The notes: generated by a model not told the origin, from the sequence alone. Positions 8,601-60,855 are shown, counted from the first letter of the stretch. The stretch: 64,000 nt of DNA from Candidatus Eiseniibacteriota bacterium (GCA_963762255.1 CAVXKA010000001.1:416001-480000); one strand, 5' to 3'. Numbers and translations are program-made.

Positions 8601-8896
8601 TAGCGGTTCCGGGGACGGAAGCCGCCGCGATCTCCGCCGCCGCCGCGCTCATCGCGCGGACGGGCTTCGTTCACGTTCAGGGCGCGGCCGCCGAAGTCCT
8701 GCTTGTCGAGTGCCGCGATCGCGGCATCCGCACCTTCGGCCGCCATCTCCACGAAACCGAAGCCGCGAGGCCGACCCGTTTCGCGATCCGTGATCAGGTT
8801 CACCGAGTCCACGGTGCCATAGTGGGAGAAGAGCTCACGAACCGATTCCTCGGTCGCGTTGAAGGGAAGGTTACCGACGTAGATCCGCTTGGACAT
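8597..8896 (-). CDS. RRM RNA-binding protein
   Basis: RNP2 IYVGNL, RNP1 RGFGFVEM, Gly/Arg-rich tail. Confidence 0.95.
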
Positions 8897-9024: not shown

Positions 9025-10023
9025 CTACATATCGCGCCAATTCTCGAGCGGGGCGGGCCGATTCTGGAGGATGCCTTCGATGCGCTCCATCACTTCCGGG
9101 GTCATCCGAACCGCAACCTCGAGCGCCTTCATGTTCTCGGCCACTTGCTCGCGCCGCGAGGCGCCGGTGATGACCGTGCTCACCTGCGGGTTCTTGAGAC
9201 ACCAGGCAATGGCAAGCTGAGCGAGTGTCGCGTCCAACTCCCGTGCTATGGGCTCCAGCTTCCGCACCTTCTCCGCGTTGGCGCGCGCCGCGTCGTTCTC
9301 GAACCCGGCCCGCAGCCACTGCATGTTGGGCAGGCTCAACCGCGAGCCCTCGGGGATCCCCTTCAGGTACTTGCCGGTGAGGAAGCCGCTGGCCAGCGGG
9401 CTCCAGATCGTGAGCCCGAGCCCGACGGTGTCGTAGAGCGGCGCGAACTCGCGTTCCACCTTGTCGCGCTCGAGCATGTGGTACTGCGGCTGCTCCATGA
9501 CGGGAGGCATGAGATGCTCGCGCCGCGCGATCACGTGCGCTTCCATGATCTCGGCTGCGGTCCACTCGCTCGTGCCCCAATAGAAGGCCTTCCCCTGCCG
9601 GATGACGTGATCCATCGCCCACACGGTCTCCTCGATCGGGGTGAGCCGGTCGGGGCGGTGACAGAAGAGAAGATCGACGTAGTCCATCTGCAGACGCTTG
9701 AGCGCGGCGTCGGTCCCTTCGAGGATGTGCTTGCGCGAGAGGCCGCGGTCGTTGGGGCCCTTGCCGCCCCAGAACATCTTGGTGGAGATGACGAGGTCGG
9801 AGCGCTTCCACCCCGCGCGCTTCACGACGTTGCCCATCACGGTTTCGGCCTGACCGCTCGCGTAGGCCTCGGCGTTGTCGAAGAAGTTCACGCCGGCGTC
9901 GTAGGCCTCGACCATGCAGTCGTAGCTGCCGTCGTCCCCGACCTGGCTTCCGTACGTGACCCACGCGCCGAGCGACAGTGCGGAGACCTTGAGACCCGAG
10001 TGGCCGAGACGACGGTATTCCAT
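9025..10023 (-). CDS. Aldo/keto reductase (Kv-beta-like subfamily)
   Basis: [38 protein letters not shown] motifs. Confidence 0.93.
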
Positions 10024-40529: not shown

Positions 40530-42869
40530 ATGACCAGCACCGACCTCGGCCACGACTTCCCGCGCTGGCTCGCCGAGGTCCAGGCGGACCGCCACTACGC
40601 CGGACAAATCGCCCACGTGGAGCGCCTCCCGGAGCGCGAGGCGCGCTACGCCGAGCTCGATCCGCCGCTCTCCGCGCTCCTGCGCGAGGCGCTCGCCGCG
40701 CTCTCCATCGAGCGGCTCTACACGCACCAGGCCGAAGCCGTCTCCGCCGCGCGCCGCGGCGAAAACGTGGTCACGGTGACCGGGACCGCGAGCGGTAAGA
40801 CCCTCGCGTTCCTGCTGCCCATCCTCGAAGCGCTCGAGAGCGATCCGTCCACCACCGCGATCCTCCTCTATCCCACCAAGGCGCTCGCCCAGGACCAGCT
40901 CAAGGGGATTCTCCGGCTTGTCGAGACGCACCCCGGGCTGCGCGAACTCGTGCGCGCCGGCGTCTACGACGGCGACACCTCGCAGAGCGCACGCCGCAAG
41001 ATCCGCGATGAGGCGAACCTCGTGCTCACCAACCCCGACATGCTCCATCGCGGAATCCTCCCCTATCACACCAAGTGGCACCGGGTGCTGCGCCGGCTTG
41101 AATTCGTGGTGACGGACGAGGTCCACACCTACCGCGGCATCTTCGGCTCCAACGTCGGCAACGTGCTGCGCCGCTTGCGCCGCGTGGCCGCCCACTACGG
41201 CGCCTCGCCGGGTTTCCTCTGCTCCTCCGCCACCATCCGCAACCCCCGCGAACTGTGCGAGACCCTCGTCGGGCTCCCCTTCAGGCTGGTGGACGACGAC
41301 GGCTCGCCGCGCGGCCCCAAGACCTTCGTGCTCTGGAACCCGCCCTATCTCGACAACGCACAGATGGAGCGGCGCAGCGGCAATGTCGAAGCGAAGGAAC
41401 TTCTGGTGCGCCTGGTCGAGCGCGGCGTCCACACCATCGTCTTCACCAAGGCGCGCGTGGTGACCGAGCTCATCTACAAGTACGCGCGCGAGGAGTTGCT
41501 TCATCGCCGCGGCGGCCTCGCCGAGAAGCTCAAGCCCTATCGCGGCGGCTACCTCCCCGCCGAACGGCGCGAGATCGAGCGGCAGCTCTTCGGCGGCGAA
41601 CTTCTCGGAGTGGTCGCCACCAACGCGCTCGAACTCGGCATCGACATCGGCGGGCTGGATGCGGCGATCCTCGTCGGGTTCCCCGGCACGGTGGCGAGCA
41701 TCTGGCAGCAGGCGGGGCGCGCCGGGCGTTCGCGCGACGAGGCGCTCACGCTCTTCGTCGGCTACAACGATCCTATCGATCAGTACCTGCTCAAGCACCC
41801 GCGCTACTTCTTCGCGCAGAACCCCGAGGCCGCGGTGTGCGATCCCGCCAACCCCTACATCCTGGCCGGACATCTCGGCTGCGCCGCCTTCGAGCTGCCG
41901 CTCACCGCCGCCGACCGCGATCTCTTCGGCGCCGAGTCCACCCCGGTGCGCGAGATCCTGCGCGAGGAAGGCGAGCTGCATTCGGTGGAAGATGAAGACT
42001 ACTGGTCCACCGCGGAGTTCCCGGCCAAGCGCGTCAACCTGCGCACGATCTCCGACGACACCTACACGATCGTGGACACCGACAACGAAGACGCGGTGAT
42101 CGGCACGGTGGACGCGATCTCCGCTCCCGAGCTGGTTTACCCGGAGGCCATCTACCTGCACGAGGGAGAGACCTTTTTCGTGCACGAACTCGACCTGGAG
42201 AAGAAGATCGCGCGGGTGAAGCGCGTGTCGGCGGACTACTACACGCAGCCCGTGCTCGACACCTCGATCCGCGTGAACGGTTCCCGCGAAGAGCGCGCCG
42301 AGAACGCGGAGATGCTCACCCTGGTCGACGCCACCGTGACCTGGGCGACGACGATGTTCAAGAAGATCCAGTTCGGGAGCATGGATTCGATCGGATACAA
42401 GAACCTCGACCTGCCCGCGCAGCACCTGGAGACGGTCGCGCTCGGCTGGTCGCCCTCGCCCGGCGTCGCCGCTGCGCTCTCCCGCGAAGGACTGAACCCG
42501 GTGGAGGGTTTGATGGGCGTGCGCAACCTGGCCATCACCGTCTTTCCGGTGCTCGCGATGTGCGACCGCGCCGACGTGGGCGGCGTGATCGACTCGTCCA
42601 ACACCGGACGCCCCACGCTCTATCTCTACGACCGCTTTCCCGGCGGACTCGGCTTCGCCGAGCGCGCGTTCACCGACTTTTCGCATCTGGTGCGCGAGGC
42701 GTTCACGCTTCTGGCCGACTGTTCGTGCGCGGACGGTTGTCCCTCGTGCGTGGGCCTTCCCATTCTCCGACCGGCCATCCATCAGGATCCCGATGCCGGC
42801 CCCGGTTACCCCATCCCCGACAAGCGCGCGGCGCGACTTCTCTTGGAAGCCGTGCTGGGCGGGCGATGA
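40530..42869 (+). CDS. DEAD/DEAH-box helicase with C-terminal DUF1998/Zn-binding domain (YprA/MrfA/Hrq1-like)
   Basis: TGTASGKT, YPTKALAQDQ, DEVH, SSATI, TNALELGIDIG, QQAGRAGR, C-x-C-x3-C-x2-C. Confidence 0.93.
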   Translation: MTSTDLGHDFPRWLAEVQADRHYAGQIAHVERLPEREARYAELDPPLSALLREALAALSIERLYTHQAEAVSAARRGENVVTVTGTASGKTLAFLLPILEALESDPSTTAILLYPTKALAQDQLKGILRLVETHPGLRELVRAGVYDGDTSQSARRKIRDEANLVLTNPDMLHRGILPYHTKWHRVLRRLEFVVTDEVHTYRGIFGSNVGNVLRRLRRVAAHYGASPGFLCSSATIRNPRELCETLVGLPFRLVDDDGSPRGPKTFVLWNPPYLDNAQMERRSGNVEAKELLVRLVERGVHTIVFTKARVVTELIYKYAREELLHRRGGLAEKLKPYRGGYLPAERREIERQLFGGELLGVVATNALELGIDIGGLDAAILVGFPGTVASIWQQAGRAGRSRDEALTLFVGYNDPIDQYLLKHPRYFFAQNPEAAVCDPANPYILAGHLGCAAFELPLTAADRDLFGAESTPVREILREEGELHSVEDEDYWSTAEFPAKRVNLRTISDDTYTIVDTDNEDAVIGTVDAISAPELVYPEAIYLHEGETFFVHELDLEKKIARVKRVSADYYTQPVLDTSIRVNGSREERAENAEMLTLVDATVTWATTMFKKIQFGSMDSIGYKNLDLPAQHLETVALGWSPSPGVAAALSREGLNPVEGLMGVRNLAITVFPVLAMCDRADVGGVIDSSNTGRPTLYLYDRFPGGLGFAERAFTDFSHLVREAFTLLADCSCADGCPSCVGLPILRPAIHQDPDAGPGYPIPDKRAARLLLEAVLGGR

Positions 42870-42881
42870 GGCGATGACGCG

Positions 42882-43709
42882 ATGATGCGCGAGGAGCTGC
42901 GTCGCAAACTCTCGGACGTCTCTCGCGGGCGCCGCCCCGCCGAGGCCCCGGCGCCATCGAAGAAGTCGCGGCGATCCCTGGCCGCGCTCCCCATCGAAAC
43001 GCTCGTCCCCGGCATCGAGGTAGCCACGTCGCGCGGACGCCACTGGCGGCACGAGCGGCCTTTGGCCGAAGCACCCGGCCTCGCCGAGGCCGCGCGCGCA
43101 CTCGCCCCCGGCGCCCTCCCCGATCCGGAACAGACCGAGGTGTCCTGCCTGGGCGACAAGGGGCTCGAAGGCGCGCTATTCCTCGACCTCGAAACCTGCG
43201 GGTTTTCCGGAAACCCGCTCTTCCTCACCGGAGCCCTGCGCATCGAGAACGGGCGGCCCATCTTCATCCAACTCCTCGCGCGGCACTACGCGGAAGAGGC
43301 GTCGGTGGTGGAGGCAAGCCTGGAGCTCCTGCGGCGACACCCGCTTCTCGTCACCTTCAACGGCAAGTCCTACGACGTTCCGTTCCTGCGCGAGCGGGCC
43401 ATTCGCCACGGCCTCGACTGGACGCCCCCGGCCGGACATCTGGATCTGCTGCACTCGGCGCGGCGGCGCTGGAAAGACGTGCTCCCCGATTGCCGCCTTC
43501 CCACGCTGGAAGAGCGGCTGACCGGCCGGCGGCGGGCGGGGGACGTGCCCGGCAGCGAGGCTCCCGAGCGCTATCACGCGTTTGTGCGCGGCGGACCGGC
43601 GAGCGAGCTGGTGCCGGTGCTGCGGCACAATTTGCTCGACCTCGTGACGCTGGTGGCGCTCCTGGGGGCGCTACCCAGATCGGGGGTGGCCATCGCGCAT
43701 AAATCCTGA
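42882..43709 (+). CDS. RNase H-like exonuclease (YprB/MrfB-like)
   Basis: FLDLETCG, TFNGKSYDVP, HLDLL, HNLLD motifs; directly after YprA-like helicase. Confidence 0.88.
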   Translation: MMREELRRKLSDVSRGRRPAEAPAPSKKSRRSLAALPIETLVPGIEVATSRGRHWRHERPLAEAPGLAEAARALAPGALPDPEQTEVSCLGDKGLEGALFLDLETCGFSGNPLFLTGALRIENGRPIFIQLLARHYAEEASVVEASLELLRRHPLLVTFNGKSYDVPFLRERAIRHGLDWTPPAGHLDLLHSARRRWKDVLPDCRLPTLEERLTGRRRAGDVPGSEAPERYHAFVRGGPASELVPVLRHNLLDLVTLVALLGALPRSGVAIAHKS

Positions 43710-46392: not shown

Positions 46393-46934
46393 GGCTGGTC
46401 TCCTGACCCAAGCCCGGGTTGGCGATGTCCTCGCCCCGCTGTTTCTGCAGGAGACGTGCCACGACGTGTGCGCTCTGCTGCGATCCCCGATCGCGCTCAT
46501 CGCGCACTTGAGACGGAGCGGACCCGATCTCGGGCGCTCGTGGTCCACGTGCGCGTCCTCCCGGGCTGGTTCCGCGCTTCGCAGTGGGAAGGGGCTATCC
46601 GGTTCGGCGGTGACGAACTTGCGTCGCGGATCGCCGAGGTCGCGTCGGTTCCATGTGCGCCGATCGCGGAGCGTTTCGGCCCCCGCCGAGTCTCCGCCGG
46701 CGCAAGTGCTACGCAGAGGCGATGTTTCGGGTGAATTACTCGCGGCGGAGATCCCCGACGTTCACGCGAGACGATCGGCACGACCCCTGCATATAGGAAT
46801 GTCGTTCGCGCGACCAGGGACGGGCCGCGCGGGCAAAGCGAACCAACGCTGTCGAAGTTACCCTCTCGTTGGAGCGCATTCGGGGGACGAATCTCCGTGG
46901 TCGAGAAGGCCCTTATCGGACGGGGGGGGCTTTC

Positions 46935-47097
46935 TCGAGTGGGCACAAACGTTGCCGGTGGGAGGTACGAGGCTGCACCCCAGTCCGGGTGCCCGTATAT
47001 GTGTTTGAAATCAATGGGTTTCGGGGATCGGCGTTTTGGCGAGAATCGTCCCCACGCAGCGATGGTGCCCACTCGAAGGGTGGTTTTCGAGTGGGCA
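46935..47097. repeat. Three copies of TCGAGTGGGCA incl. a perfect 12-bp inverted repeat
   Basis: TCGAGTGGGCAC at 46935; TGCCCACTCGAA (47066-47077) and TTCGAGTGGGCA (47086-47097). Confidence 0.7.
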
Positions 47098-47178
47098 GGA
47101 AACACGCGTTGCCCCCCCCCGGGGGAACACACCGCTACTGAGCCTCTCGGTCACGCCGCCGAGATGGACAGCAGTGCA

Positions 47179-48147
47179 CTAGAATGGCAAGTCGTCATCA
47201 TCCACCTCCGCCGGCAACTCCGTCAAAGAGACAAATTCATCCTTCCAGTCAGTCGCCTTCATGATCTTAAGGCTGCCATTCTCCCCGAACAGATCCGCGC
47301 GGACCTTTACCAGGTACTTTTCCTTCGGCCAGTCAGCCAAGTAGACACGATAATCAGGTTCCTTCCAATCGTCACGATCCACCACCTTGACCCGCCGTGC
47401 GTCAAGGAGGGCATCCATCTCGCCCACCGTCTCGAAGTAGACTCTATAGGGCACTTTCACAGTGCTCCTAATGGCTTCAAACACCGGATGGTTGCTCAGC
47501 AGAATGTCCCGGATGGTCGCATCACCTTCCTTTCTCTCTTTCGTCAGAAAGTCCACCAACTGATTCAACGTCCCAGCGGTTGCCTCGATCTTCTCAAGAA
47601 TCCGAACCTCCTTCTGACGTGCATGCTCCTGCAATAGCATCTGCAGCAACCCCGCCCATTGTTCTCGAAGGAAGAAGATGATGTCGCTCGTGACCTCAAA
47701 CGGCTGAATCGGGTTTCTGCCGGAGAGGGCAAAGAGCTCTTCTAGAAAGCCGTACACCCGAAGATCGTTCACCGCGCTGGGGGTGAACCCCTTGACGGTC
47801 TTATTGGCCAAATAGGTGCCATGCTCAGCATAGACCGCTCGCTCAACGAAAATGTAGATTTGCTTTCCCAGTTTCGCCGCCGTCCTGAGTTCATTCTGGG
47901 AGATAGAGTAGCGCGCGTCTCTGGAGTCGGTGCCGAACTTGCCCCCGACTATGTTGATCAAGATGTCGCAACTCGCAATCTCGCGGTAGCAGTCTTCCTC
48001 CAAACTTTCGGTGACTCCGTATGGAACCTGACCGCGTTCGAATAATACGGGGTCATAACCCTGCTCCCGGATGAAGCGCTCGAGATCCGCCCGTACGTTT
48101 CTTAGGTCATAGTATGTGGAGCTTATGAAGATCCGAGGACGAGCCAC
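47179..48147 (-). CDS. DUF4062 domain protein (TIR/nucleoside-deoxyribosyltransferase-like fold)
   Basis: RIFISSTYYDL...R, CYREIASCDILINIVGGKFG, SISQNE; GGAGG RBS before GTG 48147. Confidence 0.88.
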   Translation of the reverse strand: MARPRIFISSTYYDLRNVRADLERFIREQGYDPVLFERGQVPYGVTESLEEDCYREIASCDILINIVGGKFGTDSRDARYSISQNELRTAAKLGKQIYIFVERAVYAEHGTYLANKTVKGFTPSAVNDLRVYGFLEELFALSGRNPIQPFEVTSDIIFFLREQWAGLLQMLLQEHARQKEVRILEKIEATAGTLNQLVDFLTKERKEGDATIRDILLSNHPVFEAIRSTVKVPYRVYFETVGEMDALLDARRVKVVDRDDWKEPDYRVYLADWPKEKYLVKVRADLFGENGSLKIMKATDWKDEFVSLTELPAEVDDDDLPF

Positions 48148-48488
48148 GGTTAACCTCCCTTTGCATCGGCCAGAGCACATTCCTCTGATGATTGGGGGCT
48201 GCCAGTGCATGGTCCCAGGGCGGGAACGCGATTCACCTTTCTTACAGTCGCTTGCCCGACTCTGGCATGACGGCTGCCCGCCCCCCGGCGCACTGTTGAC
48301 AGAGACAATCGCGCTCTAGACAGGAACGACACGCGCCTTGACCATGCGCTCGCCCAGATGTGCGTACAGATGGAACTCACTGCCACCTTGAATAGGAACC
48401 TCCACCCCGGCTTTGCTCGACGGCTGTTAGCAATGAGGATGTTGTCTGTGATGCATTGGAGGCGATCACCTCTTCATCTGGCGACTGT

Positions 48489-49778
48489 CTACTTGAGCAT
48501 CTTCACGAGGCCTTCCAAAGTCAATTCCCACCGATCAAGTACGCGGCGCCATGCAGCACCCCAGTCACTTACCGGGTAGGAGATCCCAAAGGCACGGCAT
48601 GCGTTGACGACCTTGGCGTTTTCGACATGGGCTGGATGGAGATTATTCCGCAAGTCCCGAATCATCCTCAATCCGGCAATCACCCTGCCTACGTCTTCGT
48701 TCTCTACATCCCTATCCGGTTTCAAGAGTATCTCCAGGGCATCAATGGACCTCGGCTGAGGCCCGGCGCCACCGTGACTCTTCTTGCCCGGTATGGCAAT
48801 CGCTTCAACGTAGGTCGCTAACGTCTGTATGCTGTGGGCAAACTCCATCTTGTTCGTCGGAACCCTGGCAAAGACCAGTGCCGCTTCGTGCGGGACACGG
48901 CCGAAGAGAGGGCTGCCGAACTTCTTCTCGAAGAGTCTATCCACTGAATCGAGAAGCTCCACAGAGCGAGTGCCGCTGGGGTTCCCATCCGGTAGCCTGC
49001 CCTCTAAGCTGGGCTCGTGCGAGACTCTTCGGGCAGGTGTTTCGGAGAACACGCCGGGAAACCTCAGGACAACTCTGTACCTATGGCCGCGAGTGGGCTC
49101 TGCCCTCTCCCATCGAACCCGGCGATCGGCCTCGATACTATCGACGGGGTCGCTCAGCTGCCGCCGCTGGGAAGAATACGGGTGAACCGTTTCTTCAAAG
49201 ACCATCACATCCGGGAAGGGTAAAGCGTCACCGATCACGATGTCGAATGACAGTCGCTCTGTGGCGACGTGCACGTCGTGATAGATATTGAGCTCCCAAC
49301 TGGCCTTCTCGCCAGTTGTGACGTATGCTGGGGACAATGACATATAGTCAGTGATTGTGGTTCGACGAAACAGCTCATTGCTGGTCAATTCGTGACTTGT
49401 CTGGCCGACCCTTAGGTGGTCAGCGAAGCGCGAAACGTGGAAATCGATCGACTCTTCCCTGCCTAGTCCAGCGAATGCACCTCGCGAGATTACCGTGTGC
49501 GCATCGTAGATCACGCGCTCATCCAGGATTTCGACTGCGACTGATGCGCTGCCTTGTGGCACGTCTGGCTGCACGGTCGTTGATCGACGTACTTCGGCCT
49601 TCGCGGTCCCGTGCAACTGGATCTCAAACCGATCACTGAGGAGAGTGCACCCAGGGCGAGTCTGCGAGCTTGTCCCTGATTCCGCTTGAGACCCAATGAA
49701 GATCTTCCGAATGAGCGTGGCGGCGGCTTGTCCCAGGGCCAGGAAGAAGCCCGCAGCGTCCCAGCTGATACCGCTCAC
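48489..49778 (-). CDS. Hypothetical protein: beta-rich domain plus C-terminal helical domain with HEPN-like R-x6-H motif
   Basis: GTGA coupling to upstream gene; WERAEPTRGHRY motif; LRMIRDLRNNLHPAH. Confidence 0.7.
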   Translation of the reverse strand: MSGISWDAAGFFLALGQAAATLIRKIFIGSQAESGTSSQTRPGCTLLSDRFEIQLHGTAKAEVRRSTTVQPDVPQGSASVAVEILDERVIYDAHTVISRGAFAGLGREESIDFHVSRFADHLRVGQTSHELTSNELFRRTTITDYMSLSPAYVTTGEKASWELNIYHDVHVATERLSFDIVIGDALPFPDVMVFEETVHPYSSQRRQLSDPVDSIEADRRVRWERAEPTRGHRYRVVLRFPGVFSETPARRVSHEPSLEGRLPDGNPSGTRSVELLDSVDRLFEKKFGSPLFGRVPHEAALVFARVPTNKMEFAHSIQTLATYVEAIAIPGKKSHGGAGPQPRSIDALEILLKPDRDVENEDVGRVIAGLRMIRDLRNNLHPAHVENAKVVNACRAFGISYPVSDWGAAWRRVLDRWELTLEGLVKMLK

Positions 49779-50707
49779 GAGTGAGTGGCGGGAGACTGCT
49801 TCGTGATGCCCACCTCAGGTGCCCTCGCAATTACTTGGCGCTGCTCCGCTGCCCACGTCCAACGGAGAACGTAGAGGTTACCCACGACAGGCTTGTGAAT
49901 GCGCCATTCAATCTCCTCATAGAAGGGGCTGGTTGCGGCGCGAAGACCCGAAATGCTGCCATCCGCCGGCTGAAGCAGTACTGGTGGATCCCCGCTCCCG
50001 AATGTTGGCGGAGAAGGCAGGGGCTGAGGCTTGCCGTCTGGCTCCCGGATCTCGCCCCATGCACCGACGATTCGACATGCTGGTGAGACGACTCTAATGA
50101 TCTGCGTTTCGGTGGGTATGACTACGCGGACTCCGAGAAACTCCGAGATGTCGGGGAAGTAACCGGTGAAATCGGTGAGCACCCATACATCAACCACTTC
50201 CCCACGCTTCGGGGTATGCTTGAATACCGCGTCGATTATAACGCCGCCTTCCGGATGAGCGTGTTCGAAGACGTTTAGGTTTTCGCTCTTGTCGACGATT
50301 GTCGCGGAGGTGTCATGCAACACCTCCCCGTTGGGTGACTTTCGTGGGGTCGCCCCGCGGAAGCTGAACCCCTGCACATTGTCGGCGTTTATGCGACGGA
50401 CTTGGTGGCGTCGGTATGTGGCGCGGAAGCAACTGGAGTCTTCGAAGGAGAGGATGTTCTCTGCCTCCAAGATGGTGGTGGGCAGAATCGTTGAAAGCTC
50501 CCGAGCCCGCGCTCGCTCCCGAGCTAGGAAGCGGGTGACCAGGGGCAGGAAGATAATTAGGGCGGCTAGCTGCAGGGCTAAGCCAATCGCCCCCAGCAAG
50601 TCGAGTCGGAAGCGATGCGCCAGAAGCGAGTAGCTAAGTAGTAGAATCGCCGCCCATATGGCAAGGAGGATACGATCGGTACGGGTCGGCTGGGTACTTC
50701 TCTGCAT
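49775..50707 (-). CDS. Hypothetical 2TM protein with beta-rich C-terminal domain
   Basis: GGAGG RBS; two N-terminal hydrophobic helices; WRIHKPVVGNLYVLRW motif. Confidence 0.75.
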   Translation of the reverse strand: MQRSTQPTRTDRILLAIWAAILLLSYSLLAHRFRLDLLGAIGLALQLAALIIFLPLVTRFLARERARARELSTILPTTILEAENILSFEDSSCFRATYRRHQVRRINADNVQGFSFRGATPRKSPNGEVLHDTSATIVDKSENLNVFEHAHPEGGVIIDAVFKHTPKRGEVVDVWVLTDFTGYFPDISEFLGVRVVIPTETQIIRVVSPACRIVGAWGEIREPDGKPQPLPSPPTFGSGDPPVLLQPADGSISGLRAATSPFYEEIEWRIHKPVVGNLYVLRWTWAAEQRQVIARAPEVGITKQSPATHS

Positions 50708-50803
50708 CCCCACCTCCCTGGCTCAGCGCCATGGCTCGCAGGTCGAGCTCACCCCTGTAGAGCAATTTCGTCCGACAGACCCGCGGGGAATTTCCCCCTC
50801 CGG

Positions 50804-50845
50804 CTACCAGCCGTTGTCAATCACGCCGTCGTTTCGGAATAGCAT
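50804..50845 (-). CDS. Possible 13-aa micropeptide MLFRNDGVIDNGW
   Basis: AAGGGGAG RBS immediately upstream; between an extended -10 promoter and the 2TM gene. Confidence 0.35.
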   Translation of the reverse strand: MLFRNDGVIDNGW

Positions 50846-50923
50846 GGCTCCCCTTCTCAATCAGCAATGGTCTCTCGGTGCATAAGCAGGAAGGGCGCAG
50901 TACCCACCACCCATGCTGATAGT

Positions 50924-50932
50924 ATTCTAACA
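50924..50932 (-). promoter_or_regulatory. Extended -10 promoter
   Basis: TG-T-TAGAAT on minus strand in an AT-rich patch upstream of the 50845/50707 genes. Confidence 0.45.
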
Positions 50933-51340
50933 TAAACACGTGCGGCCTTTGTCGATCACCTTTCAGAGCGCTCAACTCCAGCCCGCAATTCACGCTTCAA
51001 GACGGCGGGTAGGATGCAACCCACTCGCGTGTTCGTCAAGCAAGAATGTAACGCAGAAGTCCTTCCTGACGCTTTAGGTATCGGAAGCGGACAGCCGGCT
51101 TGTTACCCCGTCGAAGCTGCGCACATTCCCAGCAATGGTCCAACAGCCGGTTCGTTGGAGCGGTCCAATGCGAACATCCTCCTGGCTATGAGCCACTGCG
51201 GCTAACTTCCAGTCGGGGCGGACAAGGCGCTACCGGTCCGCTGATCAATGACCATTTGTCGGCGGACCCAAGCCCGGATGGCAACTTCCCCTTGACCCCG
51301 TCGCGTCTCGGCTCCCCAATGGGGTCTGGAGGTTGACGTT

Positions 51341-51925
51341 ATGCCGTATTTGTCACCACCTACGCTCACTCGCTCCGAACAGGCCGCCCTGCTCCAAGCA
51401 AGCTCGGTTCACCCCCGCGATCACCTCGCCTTCTCCCTCGCCCTCGGCACCGGACTGAGGCTCGCGGAGATCGTCGGCCTCAACGTCGGCGATGTGTTCA
51501 GCGCCGACGGCAAGCCACGAAGCCGCATCCGTCTTCGCCGCGAGATCGCCAAGGGCGGCCGCGCCGGCGACGTGTTCCTGCCGGACGCGCTGGGGCCGAA
51601 GCTCGTGCGGTTCTGGGGGTACAAGGTGCGGTCGGGTGAATCCCTGTCGCCATCGTCACCCCTCCTCTGCAACCAGTCCGGTCTAAGGATTTCCAAACGC
51701 CGCGTCCAAATGACATTCAAGACCTGGCAGGTGCGCGCGGGGTTCGATCGGATCTATGGCTTCCATGCGATGAGACATTCGGCGATAACTTCTGTCTACC
51801 GCATGTCCCGCGATCTCTTCCTCGCGCAACGGTTCGCAAGGCACGCGAGCCCGATGACCACCACCGTCTACACCCACATCGGTGATGAAGAACTCATGCA
51901 GGGCATCCGAACTTTGAACTGCTAG
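51341..51925 (+). CDS. Short tyrosine recombinase/integrase (catalytic domain only)
   Basis: GLRLAEI (R), AKGG (K), HAMRH (HxxR), RHAS (H), VYTH (Y); GGAGG RBS. Confidence 0.92.
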   Translation: MPYLSPPTLTRSEQAALLQASSVHPRDHLAFSLALGTGLRLAEIVGLNVGDVFSADGKPRSRIRLRREIAKGGRAGDVFLPDALGPKLVRFWGYKVRSGESLSPSSPLLCNQSGLRISKRRVQMTFKTWQVRAGFDRIYGFHAMRHSAITSVYRMSRDLFLAQRFARHASPMTTTVYTHIGDEELMQGIRTLNC

Positions 51926-52383
51926 CCGCCCACGGCCAGTGGTAGAATTCATGGTCCTGAGTGGTGACGAGCTTCATTGCTGCCCACCGATTCCCCCAGG
52001 TTGGGGCATCACTCGGGAACGCCGGGCCTAGCTCACGCTGGGCCCGTTCGTTATGGCGGCCACCAGTTACATGTCCACTGGATGCCGAGGGATGCGTAGC
52101 GGCACTGCGCCAAGGTCCCTATGCTGGCGAGTGTGGTTGCGGGCAGCGATGCCTTCACAAACCGACTTGCCAGGCTCTCCGGAGGATTGACAGGTTCGCC
52201 TGCAGTCCAGATGCCCAGTCAGGGCCATGTCTGTACGTGGTACGCGTACGGCGGCAGCGGGAACCAACAACTCACTGCTATCGGATCAGACCAGTGGACG
52301 GCCACGTTCTGGGTTCTCGCCCCCCGTGCTGCCTGATAGGATGGCGTCCTTAGGTTCCGTGACTGGACTAGTTGGGGGTAACA

Positions 52384-55300
52384 ATGGCCGACGGTACTCA
52401 CGAGCAAACAATCAATGCGGCGCTAGGGGAAGTGCTCGCCGGCCTCATCCATGGATGGAGGGTCAGCGCAGAGAGAATCGGTGGGGTCGTTGAGCGCGGG
52501 GGCCGTCCTGACATTCTGGTCGAGGATCAGAGCGGTTGGCCCGTGGTGATAGAGGCAGAGGTAGGAAATCATCGTCAGGCCGAACGGGATGCGCTGGCAA
52601 GGCTTGGCGGTCGTCTGAGCCGCGCCCCCAGGACTATCGAGACTGCGGTGGCCTTGGTGTACCCGGAGGCCCTTCGTCACAAGGACGCCGGAGCACTTCG
52701 GAACGCCATCCTGTCAGCGCGCTTCGAGTATGCCGTGTTTACCTCGACCACCGACCACAGCGCACAACGATTCCCCCTCTCTGGTTGGCTAAGTGGCGGC
52801 GTTGGCGACCTCGCAATGCTCACCCACCGAGTCAGCGTGCCACCTTCGCGAGTCGAAGCCCTTGCAGTAGCGCTCGAGGGAGGTGTGAACCGGGCCGAGG
52901 GTTACTTGTCGGCACAACATCCGCACGGATCCCCGATCGGGAGCCGCGTCGCTGGAGCCCTTGGGCAAGTGGACGACGAAGCCGGTCAGAGCCGCAAGAT
53001 GGCGTTGACAGTAGTCACCAACGCCCTTGTCTTTCACGCGGCTCTTGCCGAAGCAAGCATGCTCGTTCCGGATGTCAGGACCAGGAGAGACCGTCCGGTA
53101 AAGTCGCCAATAGCATTCCGGGTGAATGCGGCATTCCGCCCGACCCCCTTGCTTGACGAGTGGGCCGCGATACTCATCGTGAACTACTGGCCCATATTCC
53201 ACACGGCCAGCACGGTCCTTCGCGAACTGCCCACGCGATCGGCTGCCGCGATTCTGGATACTCTCTGGCAGACTTCCGAAGATCTGATTGCCGGAGGAGT
53301 GACCAAGTCTCATGACTTGACCGGGGTCATTTTTCAGCGCTTGATTGCCGATCGCAAATTTCTGGCCACTTTCTATACAAGACCGGCCGCAGCCGCTCTA
53401 CTTGCCGGCTTAGCCTTGCCGGTCCATCGCCCACTGGCGGGCGCGACTTGGGAGAGTACGAAGGATCTTTCCGCAGTCCGGATTGGCGATTTTGCCTGCG
53501 GTACAGGCACTCTGCTGTCGACAGCATACCAGCGACTCAGTCTTCTGCATGAGATTCACGGCGGCGATCCGCAGGCCCTGCACAAGGAAATGATGATGCA
53601 CGGCCTTGTGGGGCTGGATGTACTGAATGTTGCAGTACACCTAACCGCAGCGATGCTGGCTGGCACGCATCCCGATACTCCGTTTGCTGGAGAGTGTCTG
53701 TTGACCATGCCGTATGGAACCCACGAGTGGGGGTGTTCCCTCGGCTCATTGGACTTGCTGGCCGCCCAGATTCCCATCGACTTCATGCAGGCAGCAGCCA
53801 AGACTGCAGGGGGGAAGGGCGAAGAGGATGTACGGGACCTGATGCGCCGGGTCGGACACGGACAGTTTCAGCTTGTAATCATGAATCCACCGTTCACGCG
53901 ACACGGTGCACACGAAGGGGAGAGGATCCGCGTCCATAATCCAGCGTTTGCCGCCTTTGAAGCGGATGAGACGGAGCAAGATGCGCTTGCGCGACATCTC
54001 AAGCGGCTCGCAAAGGGAAGTTGTGCGCACGGACATGCCGGGATGGCCTCCTACTTCGTGGAGCTTGCCCATCGGAAACTCGCTCCCTCCGGTGTCGTAG
54101 CCCTCGTGCTGCCGATGAGTGCCATGAGTGGCCAAGCCTGGGAAGGTGTCCGCGTGCTTCTACGGGATAAGTACGACAGCATCCTCGTCGTGTCTATCGC
54201 GGAGCGAAAGAGCTTCTCACGGTCATTCTCAGCAGACACTGGCATGGCAGAGTGCTTGGTACTGGCCGTACGTTCCAAGCCGAGGGGGCGCATCAAACGT
54301 GCGCATTTTGCCGTACTCGATGGGCAGCCGCAGACGACCCTTGAGGGCGATTTGATCGCAGCGGCGATCACTGCGGCGATTTCATCCGACGACGTGAGGA
54401 AGCTGGAGGATGGTCCCTTTGGCGGGACTCGTGTTTCGCTAGGAAGTACAGAGGTCGGCGAGGTCATCGACTGCCCCCTTCCACATGAGGGGGGGTGGCC
54501 AATGGTCGGGGTCAACGGGGTGAGCCTCGGACAGACAGCATACCAAGTGAGCCAGGGGCGGCTCTGGATTGAAGGCACAGCATTCGAGCAGGCGCCGGAT
54601 CTTCCGGTAGCAGCGATCGCGGACATCGGCGCCCGAATGGGTCCACACCACTTGGACATATCAGGCGCCATGCTCAAGGGGGACGGACTGCCCCAGGGCC
54701 CCTTCTCCGTGCACCCGGGCATGCCTCCCGGCGCCGGTTATCCCGCCCTCTGGAATCATGACGCGGACAGAGAGCGCACGCTCGTAGTTACTCCCGATTC
54801 TCATTGCCAAGTCCGTGACATTGGCGGGCAAATACCTCAACGACTTCAAGAACGTGCCGCGATGAGGTGGGCCACGGCCACGCGAGCACACTACAACCAG
54901 GATCTACAATTCAATTCACAGTCGTTGATAGTCGCGATGACCGAGCGTCCGTGCATTGGTGGGCGGGCATGGCCTTCAGTCATCTTTGACGCACCCGATC
55001 ACGAATTCGCATTTGCTCTCTGGTGCAATTCAACACTCGGGCTACTGTGCCACTGGTGGCAATCAAACAAGTCACAATCTGGCCGAGGAACGACGACGGT
55101 CACCAGCGTCCCGCTTTTCGCGACTCTGGATGTTCGAGCCCTGAGTAAGAAGCAGCATGCGGCCGCCAAGGCAGCCTACAATGCCATGTCACATCTTCGC
55201 TTCCTGCCCTTTGATCAGGTAGACGAAGACCCCGCACGAGCCGAACTCGATCGCCATCTCTTGGTGGATGTACTGGGCTTGAGCGGGCGGTTCTGTCACT

Positions 55301-55425
55301 CGCACGGACCTCTGGCATTGCTCCGCCAGAAGCTTGCGGCGGAGCCACAGATTCAGGGGGGAAAACGAACGCGAGTCGTCTTCACGAGGAATGGGGAGAC
55401 TAGTGAACCAAGGTCCGACCGTTGA
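52384..55425 (+). CDS. Type IIG-like fused restriction endonuclease/N6-adenine methyltransferase
   Basis: N-terminal PD-x-E-x-E nuclease-like motif (RPDILV...VIEAE), FYT, motif I DFACGTG, motif IV MNPPF, C-terminal TRD-like region. Confidence 0.85.
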   Translation: MADGTHEQTINAALGEVLAGLIHGWRVSAERIGGVVERGGRPDILVEDQSGWPVVIEAEVGNHRQAERDALARLGGRLSRAPRTIETAVALVYPEALRHKDAGALRNAILSARFEYAVFTSTTDHSAQRFPLSGWLSGGVGDLAMLTHRVSVPPSRVEALAVALEGGVNRAEGYLSAQHPHGSPIGSRVAGALGQVDDEAGQSRKMALTVVTNALVFHAALAEASMLVPDVRTRRDRPVKSPIAFRVNAAFRPTPLLDEWAAILIVNYWPIFHTASTVLRELPTRSAAAILDTLWQTSEDLIAGGVTKSHDLTGVIFQRLIADRKFLATFYTRPAAAALLAGLALPVHRPLAGATWESTKDLSAVRIGDFACGTGTLLSTAYQRLSLLHEIHGGDPQALHKEMMMHGLVGLDVLNVAVHLTAAMLAGTHPDTPFAGECLLTMPYGTHEWGCSLGSLDLLAAQIPIDFMQAAAKTAGGKGEEDVRDLMRRVGHGQFQLVIMNPPFTRHGAHEGERIRVHNPAFAAFEADETEQDALARHLKRLAKGSCAHGHAGMASYFVELAHRKLAPSGVVALVLPMSAMSGQAWEGVRVLLRDKYDSILVVSIAERKSFSRSFSADTGMAECLVLAVRSKPRGRIKRAHFAVLDGQPQTTLEGDLIAAAITAAISSDDVRKLEDGPFGGTRVSLGSTEVGEVIDCPLPHEGGWPMVGVNGVSLGQTAYQVSQGRLWIEGTAFEQAPDLPVAAIADIGARMGPHHLDISGAMLKGDGLPQGPFSVHPGMPPGAGYPALWNHDADRERTLVVTPDSHCQVRDIGGQIPQRLQERAAMRWATATRAHYNQDLQFNSQSLIVAMTERPCIGGRAWPSVIFDAPDHEFAFALWCNSTLGLLCHWWQSNKSQSGRGTTTVTSVPLFATLDVRALSKKQHAAAKAAYNAMSHLRFLPFDQVDEDPARAELDRHLLVDVLGLSGRFCHSHGPLALLRQKLAAEPQIQGGKRTRVVFTRNGETSEPRSDR

Positions 55426-55544: not shown

Positions 55545-55712
55545 CTATCGCTTCTCTTTTCTCTTGGACTTCTCTTCGGACCGTCCACTGATCGTCCAGA
55601 CTTTCTTGTCGACCGCCCGCTTCGCCCAGTCAGGTGCCCGGTCAGCAACCCGGTCAATACCATCCCAAAAGTCCTTGCTGTCCTGCCGTTGCGACTTCGT
55701 GTTCTGCTTCAT
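55545..55712 (-). CDS. Small basic protein (55 aa) translationally coupled to the dCTP deaminase
   Basis: ATGA overlap with deaminase stop; MKQNTKSQRQDSKDFWDGIDRVADRAPDWAKRAVDKKVW... Confidence 0.55.
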   Translation of the reverse strand: MKQNTKSQRQDSKDFWDGIDRVADRAPDWAKRAVDKKVWTISGRSEEKSKRKEKR

Positions 55713-57199
55713 CGTGATTCAGCTCTCAATTTCCTAAGAATACGCGCAGCAGCAGTTTCACGTTCAGAATAGGCTGTTGCCGCCTCATGCATCCTTACCT
55801 GCCACTTACTCTTGACGAGTTTACCATCTCTAGCTTTGCGCTTCAACGGCCCATCTGGCCCAGTCTTCATGGAGAAGAGGGTTGCGTACCTGCTCGGTGC
55901 CACCCCGATGAAAGGTTCCAAGACCACAAGGGGCCTCTGATGGGCGTCTGCCACAGTAGGTCGTCCCTCCAATGTGACTGCATCCGCATGGAGCTCGGCT
56001 GCGAGGCTCTTTGGGTACGGCTCGATGTAGACGACGTGCTCGATCCCAGCAGCAACGATGTGCTTTGCACAGTTGTGACAAGGAAACGTCGTGCAGTAGA
56101 GAGACGTTCCTTTGACGGGTATTCCTACTCGACTGGCCGCCAGTACAGCCGCCACCTCAGCATGAACAGCCCGCCCGAATTCGGTCAGGCTGACCAGCCT
56201 ACTGCCGGACAGCGCCACTTCAAGCTCCGCGATGTTACCTGTTGGGCGCCTCTTCCGGTTTGATTTGGCACTCTTGGGCCATTTCTGATGTAGCTCGGCG
56301 AGAAGCCCAAGAATCTGGACTCTGTTCGAATCATGGCCCAGCTCAACATCTCGCTTCCGGTACTCGTCAGTACACCAGTACTGTCCCCCTCCGGCCTTGG
56401 GAACTTCATTGCAGCCGACACTTATGACATCGCCGTCTCCATTGAGAATCGCGGCCCCCACCTGTCGCGACAGGTCTGCGGATCGTAACCCTGCGGCTTG
56501 GGCCAAGAACATGCCGTACTCGTCGATGTTGGGAGATAGGACAGCCGCCCCGCCAAGCAGGGACATGAAGCGGTCTAGCGAGCTTTTCACAGATTCCACA
56601 TTGGCGCTGCTAACGAAAACATCGGAAAGATGAAAGGTGTCTCGTACTTGCTGCCCCCACTTAATATCCTCTGCCTGATCGCGCTTGATGAGTGTGTCTA
56701 CCTCTCCTCCCGATATGCCGGAACTGCCCAAGGCAGCGCGGCGCTCCTTCTCGCTCGCGTGCACGCCAATGAGCCAAAAAGAGTCTCCGTATATGTCCCG
56801 CAACGTCTGTACTTCCGCGTGGTGCTTCAGTTGCCGGACAATGTACGCCCGTTTGCGGCGCTTAAATGGATCAGCCGTCCTCGCGCGCTCAGCGATAACT
56901 CCAGCCGCGAGAAGGGCCAATACATCTTCGCGGCCGGTGATCTTGCGGAGTTCATTGCCTTGATCCATCAATCCCATGATTCTCTGATACTCCCGCGTCC
57001 CTTTGTGCTTTCTCTGTCTGGAGGGCCAGCGCGAGTGAGCCAGGGATTCACTCAATCGAATGTACTCAACTGGGTACTTCACGGTGCCCAGAAACGCAGC
57101 CAGGGCCTGCACCGCCAAGTCGACACGCGCCCCAACTGCGGATGTTAGACCAATGATCAGTTCCGGTTCCTTGGCATCCAGTGACGCGATTGTTCGCAT
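55709..57199 (-). CDS. Anti-phage dCTP deaminase (AvcD-like, P-loop kinase plus deoxycytidylate deaminase)
   Basis: ELIIGLTSAVGA, QLKHHAEV..LR.IYG, RSADLSRQVGA, GCNEVPKAGGG, VHAE, TTFPCHNC, YIEPYPKS. Confidence 0.92.
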   Translation of the reverse strand: MRTIASLDAKEPELIIGLTSAVGARVDLAVQALAAFLGTVKYPVEYIRLSESLAHSRWPSRQRKHKGTREYQRIMGLMDQGNELRKITGREDVLALLAAGVIAERARTADPFKRRKRAYIVRQLKHHAEVQTLRDIYGDSFWLIGVHASEKERRAALGSSGISGGEVDTLIKRDQAEDIKWGQQVRDTFHLSDVFVSSANVESVKSSLDRFMSLLGGAAVLSPNIDEYGMFLAQAAGLRSADLSRQVGAAILNGDGDVISVGCNEVPKAGGGQYWCTDEYRKRDVELGHDSNRVQILGLLAELHQKWPKSAKSNRKRRPTGNIAELEVALSGSRLVSLTEFGRAVHAEVAAVLAASRVGIPVKGTSLYCTTFPCHNCAKHIVAAGIEHVVYIEPYPKSLAAELHADAVTLEGRPTVADAHQRPLVVLEPFIGVAPSRYATLFSMKTGPDGPLKRKARDGKLVKSKWQVRMHEAATAYSERETAAARILRKLRAESR

Positions 57200-57895: not shown

Positions 57896-58237
57896 TGTTT
57901 GGATCTCCTTAGAGGGCCGACGGGAACGCGTCACCGAGCGACGAGATCGCGTCGACACTGTCACCCGAGGCATGACTGCACCGCCGCAGGACCGACAAAG
58001 CACCATTCTCCGTAGCCCAGCGTGGTGGGCACGTAAGCGATTGTGGAATAATCGTTTATAGGCGTGACGGAGCCAGCGCGAACCCCTTAGGCGCATGCGC
58101 TGACACTCGACACTCCCCCAGATAGGCAACCTTCCCACCGTCAGGTGCCTGTTCGACAAAACACGCGTTGTGACATTGTGGGTACTGGATGTGAAAATAG
58201 GGTTGTGCATGCGCCCAGTCTCTGGTACCGTCTCTGC

Positions 58238-59125
58238 GTGGTCATTTCTAAGAGCAGTTACCCCACGAGTGTTCTGACCCCGGAGGAGTGCGAGAGGCTC
58301 GTCCTCGCGTTCTCTGAGAAGTCGACCTCGGGTGCTCGCAACCGCGCCATCGTGTCGTTGGCTTGGCGTGGCGGACTCCGTCATAGCGAGTTGGTGGCTC
58401 TCAAACCGGGTGACTACAACGCCGTGATGAATGAACTCACCGTTTGGAGCACATCGCAAAACGCCGGGCGCAGGATCTCGCTCGACCCGGAGACGAACTT
58501 CTTCTTCGCGCTTTGGATGGGTGAACGCACGGCCCGGCGCAAGCGGTTGAACATCAAGCATGAGCACCCCGTGTTCTGCACGATTGAACGCGGACGCTTC
58601 GGTGAGCCGCTCAGCGAGAACTACATCCGCAACATGATCGATCGGGGTCGGAAGAAGGCGGGCATCTCGAAGAAGGTCTATGCCGAGTCCCTCCGTGACG
58701 CGCGGGCGGTTGAGCTGCGCTACGCAGGATTCAGCCCCATGGCAGCCCTGCACTTCCTTGGCGACCGCAGCTTTCTCGACAACCCGCGTTATGGCCCACT
58801 GCCGGCCGGTGACTTCAGCGGGACTCATCTGGAGAAGACTGCATGGCTGGTGGATCGCCCCAGATTGAAATTCTTGGTACAGGGGATGACCTTGACCCCG
58901 CGAGATCACGAAGACCAGGAACTCACATCGCACGTGCAGTGGACGCAGGTCGTCGCCGATCGAAGCGGCGCAGTCGAACAGTCGTTTAGTCACGAAGAGG
59001 TGCTTTCCAAGTCGCGGTCGGGCGGCACGGTTGAAGAGAAGGTTGATCGTCTAGAGCGTCGAATCGAAGAACTCACCCACGCCATCGAGACGCTCACGCG
59101 CCTCGCGAAGGGAGGCGACTCCTAG
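58238..59125 (+). CDS. Tyrosine-recombinase-like protein with degenerate active site and coiled-coil tail
   Basis: LTPEE, RNRAIVSLAWRGGLRHSE; ESLRD instead of HxLRH, LGD instead of LGH; start uncertain. Confidence 0.75.
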   Translation: MVISKSSYPTSVLTPEECERLVLAFSEKSTSGARNRAIVSLAWRGGLRHSELVALKPGDYNAVMNELTVWSTSQNAGRRISLDPETNFFFALWMGERTARRKRLNIKHEHPVFCTIERGRFGEPLSENYIRNMIDRGRKKAGISKKVYAESLRDARAVELRYAGFSPMAALHFLGDRSFLDNPRYGPLPAGDFSGTHLEKTAWLVDRPRLKFLVQGMTLTPRDHEDQELTSHVQWTQVVADRSGAVEQSFSHEEVLSKSRSGGTVEEKVDRLERRIEELTHAIETLTRLAKGGDS

Positions 59126-59304
59126 ATTCATAGGATTGCGAGTAGTGCCCGTTCGTACCCCCGGGCCAGGATCGGATCCACAGCAATCGTACAGAGTGGT
59201 CGCCTCATCGGACTTTCTCTCAGGCCCCACTACGCCCGGCCTTGGGCGTCCCGTTCCACATTCCGCCGACTGCTTCTCCTCGGCGTCGGCGTGGAGGATT
59301 CCTG

Positions 59305-60855
59305 ATGCTTGAATCCGCCCGTGTCACTCCCATGTACCGTGACAAGTACGAACGCGCCCAGGCAGAGGCTAAGCGGTTCGAGGATTGGTGTAAGACGGCG
59401 TGGCGAGAAGACCCATTGCCGTTCTCGTCACGGCCCCGTCCCGGCTTTCCGGTGGGCCTCCTGCCCGATGTTGTACGCGACTTCGTCACCGCGGTGGCAC
59501 AGGCAATAGCTACACCCGTCGACTTACCCGCGGTGGTCGCCTTGGCCGTGTTGTCAACGGCCGCAGCCAAGCGAGTCCGTGTGCGAGTGAGGGCGGGCTG
59601 GACTGAACCCGTCAACCTATACGAAGTACTCGCCATGGAGTCGGGCTCTGGAAAGAGCACGGCCTTCTCTCCCCTCACCGACCCCATCTTTCGCTTTCAG
59701 AAAGAGGCGCGGCGGGAGCAGGCAGCTGAGCTTCCCCGCGTCCGCGCACGACGGCAAGCCGTCGAGGATCAGATTCAGGGGGTGAGGCGCCAGATTGGCA
59801 GGATGGGGTCGAAACCGGCCGAGCTGACCGAGCTCAACGCACGACTTGAGGAGCTCAACGTCAGCTTGGATGCCCTCCCCATGCCGGTCTCGCCTTTGTT
59901 CATAACGGAGGACGCGACACCCGAAGCCCTCGCAACAGCCATCTATGAGCACGGTGAACGCATGGCGGTATTGAGCGCAGAGGGCGGCGAGGTCGTGGAG
60001 ATCATGGATGGCCGGTATGCCAAGAACCCCAACATCGGGATCTACCTCAAGGCCTACACGGGGGACCGGACGACCATCCTGCGACGAGGACGGGAAGAGT
60101 GCCTCGAGCAGCCGATTCTGACCCTCTTGCTGACCGTCCAGCCCGCAGTCATTCCCCAGATGATCAAGAACGAACACTTCAAAGAGCGTGGACTCCTGGG
60201 ACGGGTCCTGTACTCCATACCACAGAGCACGCTGGGCCACCGGGAATTCAGCCGACCGCCCGTTCCCCCAGAGGCCCGAGAACGCTACAGCACCGTCGTC
60301 ACGCAACTCATGAGCATGAGCGAGACGATCGAACTCGACGTATCCAATGCGGCCCTCGCCGAGTTGTGCGCCTTTCATGACTCTGTTGAACCGCGCCTCG
60401 ATCGGCACACGGGCGACTTGGCCTACATGCAGGAATGGGCGGCCCGCATGCCGGGTTTCGCGGTTCGCATCGCGGGTCTTCTCCACGTCGCCGACTGCGG
60501 CGGCACGGAGATCCAGGGCACGACGATGCACCGCGCCGTGCGGCTTGTGCAGGAGTACTTCCTTCCCCACGCGCAGCTTGCCCACGAAGTTGTGTTTCTG
60601 GATGAGCGACTGGCCGGAGCGAAGGACCTGCTGGAAGTGATCCGGTCCAAGGGCTGGTCCTTGTTCACGGGACGGATGCTGCATCAGGCGGTGAGGGGCC
60701 AGACCCGGTTTCACAAGCGGGAACCGGTAACCCAAGCGCTCGAAGTCATGGAGCAGCGCAACTACGTGAAGGTGATCCCCGGGAAGAAGGACGAATGGAT
60801 GGTGCATCCCCGATGGTTGGCCGGGGAGTGCGCAGAAGAAAGTGAGGATCTCTGA
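59305..60855 (+). CDS. DUF3987/YfjI family protein (primase-helicase-associated)
   Basis: FPVGLLP, WTEPVNLY, ESGSGKS, DATPEAL, SAEGG, RGLLGR motifs; GGAGG RBS. Confidence 0.88.
   Translation: MLESARVTPMYRDKYERAQAEAKRFEDWCKTAWREDPLPFSSRPRPGFPVGLLPDVVRDFVTAVAQAIATPVDLPAVVALAVLSTAAAKRVRVRVRAGWTEPVNLYEVLAMESGSGKSTAFSPLTDPIFRFQKEARREQAAELPRVRARRQAVEDQIQGVRRQIGRMGSKPAELTELNARLEELNVSLDALPMPVSPLFITEDATPEALATAIYEHGERMAVLSAEGGEVVEIMDGRYAKNPNIGIYLKAYTGDRTTILRRGREECLEQPILTLLLTVQPAVIPQMIKNEHFKERGLLGRVLYSIPQSTLGHREFSRPPVPPEARERYSTVVTQLMSMSETIELDVSNAALAELCAFHDSVEPRLDRHTGDLAYMQEWAARMPGFAVRIAGLLHVADCGGTEIQGTTMHRAVRLVQEYFLPHAQLAHEVVFLDERLAGAKDLLEVIRSKGWSLFTGRMLHQAVRGQTRFHKREPVTQALEVMEQRNYVKVIPGKKDEWMVHPRWLAGECAEESEDL

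Follow-up and report, generated by a model that had tools for sequence, protein, structure and literature searches.

The 64,000-nt stretch analysed here (the window), from a Candidatus Eiseniibacteriota bacterium (GCA_963762255.1 CAVXKA010000001.1:416001-480000), contains a block of lower G+C content of ~14 kb (~47-61 kb; 0.55-0.63 versus ~0.64-0.73 elsewhere in the window), which looks like an integrative defence island carrying several defence genes. Within this island, three genes lie on the minus strand in the same orientation: gene A, encoding a protein with two predicted transmembrane (TM) helices; gene B, which is coupled to A; and a gene of the DUF4062 family. A sequence-only reading had proposed that A and B share a beta-rich receptor domain and constitute, together with a DUF4062 protein possibly producing the signal, a single anti-phage module. 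The analysis reported here points to a different arrangement, in which the DUF4062 gene stands on its own and the C-terminal domain of B belongs to an unnamed family with motifs resembling those of HEPN ribonucleases (RNases). This conserved domain is not represented in the copies of Pfam, NCBIfam and PADLOC that were searched, and Foldseek gave no significant structural neighbour for it.

Genes A and B and their coupling

Gene A encodes a protein of 310 aa at 49775-50707 on the minus strand (open reading frame (ORF) 49775-50713). Its start is most likely the ATG at 50707, which is preceded at a distance of 5 nt by a GGGAGG sequence. As the sequence-only reading had noticed, two TM helices are predicted at the N-terminus (residues 13-31 and 39-57, encoded at 50537-50671 on the minus strand; Kyte-Doolittle 19-residue means of 2.12 and 2.35), forming a hairpin followed by a soluble region of ~250 aa. 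The Arg-rich segments before the first and after the second helix suggest an in-in hairpin with a cytoplasmic soluble C-terminal domain, and it is from these segments that we infer the membrane topology of A. The G+C content at the three codon positions of A (0.63/0.47/0.67) is similar to that of verified genes of the island.

CBASS, Pycsar and Thoeris-type systems use 2TM membrane effectors. Like these effectors, A combines an N-terminal two-helix hairpin with a soluble domain and is located in a defence island. Unlike them, A lacks known sensor domains such as SAVED, SLOG or cNMP-binding ones, and its island has no cyclase or signal-making enzyme: with Pfam and PADLOC models (for PADLOC, none newer than 2.0.0), neither a cyclase or CD-NTase nor a known ligand-sensing domain (SAVED, SLOG, CARF or cNMP) was found in A, in B or in the island genes.

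Gene B (429 aa; 48489-49778, minus strand) starts with a GTG codon that overlaps the stop codon of A. The TGA of A occupies 49777-49775 and the GTG of B 49778-49776, giving a 4-nt GTGA overlap, which is a classic translational-coupling arrangement and bears out the coupling of A and B that had been proposed. The codon-position G+C of B (0.61/0.46/0.66) is also similar to that of verified island genes. The protein begins with an amphipathic or hydrophobic helix (residues ~6-29), continues with an orphan region up to residue ~260 and ends in a conserved helical domain. An AlphaFold2 (AF2) prediction of full-length B from its single sequence, with a predicted local distance difference test score (pLDDT) of 36.8, places strands across residues 50-244 at low confidence, so that a beta-rich fold of this region is plausible on the strength of the model.

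Outside the conserved domain of B, no relatives of the two proteins were detected. Gene A had no match in Pfam, PADLOC, NCBIfam or PHROGs; a word-index homolog search returned A alone among 6150 candidates, and tblastn against plasmids and phages gave no match. Comparison of A with PDB sequences yielded chance-level matches only, and the ESM Atlas returned only unnamed clusters, with a recognition score of 2098, under the 2300 mark. For B, likewise, no Pfam, PADLOC, NCBIfam or PHROGs match was obtained, the word-index search returned B alone, the ESM Atlas gave no usable match, tblastn against plasmids and phages gave none and PDB sequences matched at chance level only. Relatives of B residues 1-215 were found in none of the searches, and phmmer of A and of the N-terminal half of B against the other proteins of this analysis returned nothing below E=1. 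Whether A and B were already part of a catalogued defence system had been left as a question by the sequence-only reading, and neither protein matches a PADLOC model.

The proposal of a common receptor domain was based on two motifs, V-x-[IV]-[PA]-TE and W-x4-P-x2-G-x2-Y. Both are indeed present in the two proteins and in the same order (V195-E200 and W268-Y279 in A; V169-E174 and W223-Y234 in B), but as evidence of homology they do not hold. The best BLASTP alignment of A and B (E=4.8) leaves the motifs unpaired. A Smith-Waterman alignment of A 61-310 with B 31-262 scores 31, while shuffled sequences score 32.2 on average (sd 4.7; z -0.26) and 297 out of 500 shuffles reach the observed value. 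The hhalign probability for A against B is 0.05. The similarity, as far as alignments can tell, is thus no better than chance, and the description of a shared domain as beta-rich is backed by the low-confidence single-sequence model of B. The shared-domain argument should be dropped. Prediction of an A-B complex gave a score of 0.00, which carries no weight for or against binding.

The conserved C-terminal domain of B

The C-terminal part of B (residues ~268-429; 48492-48977, minus strand) is an unnamed, ~160-aa all-alpha domain with HEPN-like motifs, a family that no model covers in the searched copies of Pfam, NCBIfam or PADLOC. An exhaustive phmmer search with B against 1.84 billion cluster representatives (E<=1e-3) returned 58 proteins, i.e., B itself, one repeat protein (P0044, residues 225-271), dropped as unrelated, and 56 relatives, all of which align solely inside B residues 216-429. 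Conservation was counted in an alignment of 57 sequences over ~160 residues, hereafter A1. Four residues are near-invariant: R377 (55/57), P382 (52/57), H384 (54/57) and W410 (53/57). The first three lie within the stretch R377-N-N-L-H-P-A-H384 (48627-48650, minus strand), an R-x5/6-H core with 6 residues between Arg and His in B and 5-6 over the family. The sequence-only reading had singled out this very stretch (LRNNLHPAH) as an R-x6-H motif in a helical domain, and it turns out to be the near-invariant core of the family. Upstream, position 312 is acidic in 46/57 sequences, position 313 is Phe in 49/57 and position 316 is R or K in 45/57. The residue following the Arg is S/N/D, or K/N/Q/R, in 51 of the 57; it is N378 in B.

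The partners of the domain are diverse. N-terminal extensions of at least 60 aa are present in 45 of the 56 relatives and fall into 13 clusters, including Ras-like GTPase and TPR regions, which are unrelated to one another, to A or to the N-terminal half of B. Judged from these sequences, such a set of unrelated N-terminal modules is what one sees when different sensors are combined with a common effector. In one relative (P0010, 587 aa), the domain is fused to an N-terminal Ras/Roc-like small GTPase, while in another (P0012, 584 aa) the domain comes first and is followed by a long TPR array, showing that it can also be N-terminal. The middle regions of some family members look like winged-helix domains when read by eye, rather than by any tool.

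An AF2 model of the domain built with A1 (pLDDT 87.7; pTM 0.84) contains seven helices, the second and third long ones being separated by an insert. The Arg of the core (R122 in model numbering) is at the end of helix 106-125 and the His (H129) in the loop 126-132. In the available portion of the survey by Anantharaman et al. 2013 (PMC3710099), HEPN domains are described as having an R-x4-6-H motif that spans the end of core helix-3 and the beginning of the loop leading to helix-4, its His being exposed; a polar residue after the Arg; an upstream E-x3-[KR] in helix-2; and an insert that separates the second from the third core helix. Taken as a family, the domain appears to match all four of these descriptors, with helix placement taken from the predicted structure, but B itself carries S316 in place of the R/K. 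In the model, the R-x5/6-H core, the E-x3-[RK] motif and the helix topology look like those of HEPN-type metal-independent RNases. The likeness extends to known HEPN RNase effectors (Abi_2/AbiD-F, AbiV, RnlA/LsoA, ApeA, Csm6/Csx1), which, as far as the same portion describes them, are all-alpha with R-x5/6-H at a helix end and the next loop, are fused to variable partners and have members beside restriction-modification (R-M)-like or defence genes, as is seen for some members of the B-domain family (PMC3710099). Unlike these effectors, the family has no detectable profile or Foldseek relation to any HEPN family or structure, its modelled fold has seven helices and is not a plain four-helix bundle, and B lacks the R/K of E-x3-[RK]. 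A literature search on two-gene systems combining HEPN and TM proteins brought up nothing evidently about A or B.

The genomic surroundings of the family were explored with nine sequences of the largest subfamily, which shares with B the C-terminal domain alone. These led to ten loci in GTDB genomes, where 48 flanking ORFs were annotated with Pfam and PADLOC; three of the loci (L003, L007 and L008) end at a contig end. At one locus (L001, 5920-10885), the relative has an 11-nt overlap with the end of a gene for a 1358-aa DrmMI/type IIG methylase. The same cluster includes a DpdE/DrmD helicase that an IS1595 transposase interrupts, together with a Ppl-like ATPase, a Schlafen/AlbA_2 protein and DUF3800. 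At a second (L009, 6529-10534), the relative directly follows a SIR2-HerA system, and at a third (L006) it is flanked by a HEPN pEK499_p136 gene, a GTPase and small multi-TM proteins. At the remaining seven loci, nothing of a clearly defensive nature was seen. Such defence neighbours, with 2 out of 10 relatives directly behind strong systems, are suggestive rather than statistical.

Some further details of these loci can be recorded. The relative at L001 may be an operon partner of the methylase-based system. At L009, HerA reads as two ORFs (7800-8741 and 9103-9942), which correspond to the N- and C-terminal parts of HerA models, and downstream there is a weak match (1.6e-11) to the PADLOC DRT-associated RTasWYL-YodC model. 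At L010 (8925-10915), two co-oriented genes just upstream of the family member encode a protein of 166 aa, in which two segments are TM-like, and an uncharacterised one of 150 aa; it is the sole locus that faintly echoes the 2TM-partner layout of A and B.

The DUF4062 gene and the reading of the locus

The third gene encodes a DUF4062 protein of 322 aa with an auxiliary (AUX) region (47179-48147, minus strand; ORF 47179-48210). Its start is placed at GTG 48147 because the consensus of its homologs, MAxPRVFISSTYYDL, begins there with MAxPR. The family assignment is secure in Pfam (DUF4062, PF13271; 5.2e-17; score 62.3 bits, cutoff 24.7; positions 1-82 of the 82 in the profile), and the gene does follow A and B in the same orientation, as described in the sequence-only reading. 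It is not translationally coupled to B, as the start codon is located 341 nt after the stop of B. This spacer (48148-48488, minus strand) has short ORFs only: it contains no recognised gene, no Rfam family and no promoter-like site, and its RNA fold z-score of -0.41 is not significant. No minus-strand terminator-like site was recognised in 46500-52400.

The DUF4062 protein has 921 homologs at E<=1e-3; among the matches listed (119 besides the query), identity is 48-70%, query coverage 88-100% and length 280-368 aa. E86, S81 and A90 are invariant in 20/20 aligned sequences and F7 is nearly invariant. By tblastn, no match to plasmids was found at 1e-10. The sole PDB sequence match is a weak one (E=0.16, residues 3-101) to the solved protein KpSwz. 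In the HMMER pairwise alignment, the Glu of KpSwz is opposite Q84, two residues before the family-invariant E86. Because residues 3-101 alone align, the core is shared with KpSwz and the AUX region is not, the latter having no sequence match to KpSwz. The family works without A or B, because the DUF4062 protein has 921 homologs and relatives of neither A nor the N-terminal half of B were detected.

Three preprints of 2026, in the parts of their text that are accessible, describe DUF4062 as an effector that hydrolyses NAD+, with ADP-ribose plus nicotinamide as products, mostly in single-gene systems (10.64898/2026.05.01.722283, 2026.06.25.731849, 2026.09.04.749371). In these accounts, Swarozyc is a single-gene system with an essential auxiliary domain (10.64898/2026.05.01.722283), Evangelion is a family of single-gene systems whose core is conserved while the AUX region has diversified (10.64898/2026.06.25.731849), and the NIR domain is a modular effector found in Avs, Vulcan and the two-gene system Vesta (10.64898/2026.09.04.749371). 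As in the systems so described, the gene of the window encodes an N-terminal core in which a Phe is conserved and a Glu invariant, an auxiliary region of ~200 aa and ~320 aa in total, and it is a stand-alone gene located on a mobile element among defence genes. The DUF4062 gene is a new member of the kind described in 2026. By analogy, the best reading is that of a candidate defence gene of the Swarozyc/Evangelion/NIR kind, which depletes NAD+ independently, and not of a maker of signals, the role that the sequence-only reading had tentatively given it; its annotation should accordingly be changed to a separate NADase defence gene of this kind.

The explanation proposed here, which may well be right but is held with somewhat less than even confidence, is that the ~14-kb integrative defence island carries two independent units, the DUF4062-AUX NADase gene and an A-B operon with B as a HEPN-like effector. 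In the first unit, by analogy with the preprints, the AUX region would sense a phage cue and the DUF4062 core would deplete NAD+, leading to abortive infection. In the second, the N-terminal region of B would be the putative sensor of infection, while the C-terminal domain of B would act as effector, most probably as a metal-independent RNase that employs R377 and H384. A, kept in a fixed ratio by translational coupling, would anchor or gate B at the membrane, or would damage the membrane itself. What the analysis shows is the structure of the genes, the existence of the domain family, the conservation of its motifs, the confident helical model and the setting in the island; we infer the RNase activity, the defence role and the cooperation of A with B, and the A-B pair is a plausible but unproven new defence module, lineage-specific and unique to this genome. 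If the domain of B is an RNase effector, it would represent a new, structurally unplaced branch of the HEPN-like toolkit in bacterial immunity. A way into ~56 so far uncharacterised protein clusters, which have at least 13 different putative sensor modules, would also be opened, and the A-B pair would show the coupling of such an effector to a membrane protein. A bolder version of this proposal, distinctly doubtful at present, is that the domain defines an unnamed effector family (either divergent HEPN-type RNases or an unrelated R/H-based fold) operating behind many sensors in prokaryotic immunity, and that A-B is a new membrane-coupled two-protein abortive-infection system.

Several results weigh against the A-B part of this explanation. 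The structural comparison called for by the sequence-only reading gave no significant match to HEPN proteins: Foldseek against the PDB, a method weak on small helical bundles, gave 0 matches at E<=0.001 (best E 0.29), and the HEPN chains 2hsb, 7bxo_D and 1ufb_A appeared only at ranks 20, 25 and 32, with probabilities of 0.25-0.41 and TM-scores of 0.28-0.43, i.e., at noise level. Foldseek against BFVD gave nothing significant (best E 0.37), and the A1 profile had 0 matches among PDB sequences. In Pfam at E<=10, nothing was found for the domain of B; among the 25 of 72 families listed, no HEPN model appeared and none was present in more than 2 of the 57 members. Alignment by hhalign with one pEK499_p136 HEPN protein, from a neighbouring locus, gave a probability of 0.14. 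Because there is no Foldseek, PDB-profile, Pfam or hhalign support, the domain is called HEPN-like, a term referring to its predicted structure and motifs, and is not filed as a HEPN member. B itself has E312 but a Ser at position 316, which is R/K in the family. N-terminal TM segments are absent from all family members, among which there is no recurrent TM partner either, and 6-7 of the 10 loci of relatives are without a strong defence neighbour, several of them being situated among housekeeping genes. A and the N-terminal half of B were seen in this genome only, which leaves their cooperation or function without comparative support, and neither a promoter nor a terminator was recognised that would fix the transcription units.

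Several of these points are also what recommends the main rival, a serious possibility though unlikely on balance, in which the A-B pair is real but not immune, being an addiction or toxin-type module or other cargo of the element, and the domain of B is a non-catalytic binding or regulatory module. It would account for the lack of any structural or profile link of the domain to a nuclease and for the 6-7 loci without strong defence neighbours; TPR or Ras-like GTPase N-terminal regions suit regulators, and B is without R/K at position 316. However, a near-invariant R, P-x-H and W together with an acidic residue is typical of an active site, the combinatorial fusion of the domain to 13 N-terminal types is at odds with this rival, and two relatives are directly behind SIR2-HerA and a DrmMI-like methylase, while the island itself is rich in defence genes. 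That A, and perhaps also the N-terminal half of B, is a decaying or spurious reading frame, with only a domain remnant conserved, is scarcely probable. The empty searches with A and B 1-215, the pLDDT of 36.8 for B and the Atlas score of 2098 for A, below 2300, are what would be expected of such a frame, but the frames run uninterrupted over 310 and 429 codons in DNA of 58% G+C, have a GGGAGG ribosome-binding site and the GTGA overlap, show a codon-position G+C like that of verified neighbours, and keep the conserved domain in frame with the N-terminal part of B.

The proposal of one signalling system, in which DUF4062 would provide a nucleotide signal to a receptor domain common to A and B, leading to membrane damage and RNA cleavage, is very unlikely. 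It draws on the adjacency and shared orientation of the three genes and on the layout of A, which is like that of CBASS or Pycsar membrane effectors. The accessible text of the preprints adds that DUF4062 is TIR-like, that some TIR enzymes make signals, and that a two-gene NIR system, Vesta, exists (10.64898/2026.09.04.749371). It is contradicted by the chance-level similarity of A and B and by the 341-nt gap before the DUF4062 gene, by the 921 DUF4062 homologs in a setting where no relative of A or of B was detectable, and by the absence of known ligand-sensing domains from A and B in Pfam, PADLOC and NCBIfam.

The island and its flanks

The setting is a mobile island rich in defence genes, on the evidence of the dCTP deaminase, the DUF4062 gene, an integrase and DUF3987, which is in line with the island proposed in the sequence-only reading. 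The island is regarded as an integrative element because it is marked by a tyrosine integrase (58145-59125, plus strand), the second recombinase in the island, and by a DUF3987 helicase/primase-like gene (59242-60855, plus strand). The other recombinase is a tyrosine recombinase of 194 aa comprising the catalytic domain only (51341-51925, plus strand; Pfam 1.8e-19), located just upstream of the gene for a 1017-aa protein. At the ends of the island, no tRNA, att-like direct repeat or Rfam family was found.

The sequence-only reading had also placed an R-M system and a dCTP deaminase in the island. The latter is present: the gene at 55709-57199 (minus strand) encodes an anti-phage dCTP deaminase, matching the NCBIfam equivalog NF041025 (7.4e-132) with 440.3 bits against a cutoff of 400, i.e., above the equivalog threshold, and the PADLOC dCTPase model (2.2e-151). 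The R-M system is reduced to a single 1017-aa protein (52372-55425, plus strand) for which the only family matches, to N6-adenine methylase, type IIG, PglX or mad2 models, are weak ones, such as Pfam Eco57I (1.4e-4, under the gathering score) and PADLOC MTase_II (1.7e-10). No separate restriction gene was identified beside it.

Three minor features were observed towards the left edge of the island and beyond. Just 3′ of the DUF4062 stop codon, a C5G9 run is present in the minus-strand reading (window 47100-47178). About 100 nt beyond this run, there is a 21-nt inverted repeat (46935-46955 and 47056-47076; 86% complementary), which is situated in a 630-nt gene-free stretch at the island edge and could be a terminator or an element boundary. 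Further out, in the chromosome flank of higher G+C content (window 40530-43709, plus strand), a DEAD/Helicase_C/WHD_HRQ1 helicase, which includes the Zn-binding domain of MrfA, precedes an RNase_H_2/PolB-exo-like exonuclease, and the two together look like an MrfA-MrfB-type repair pair.

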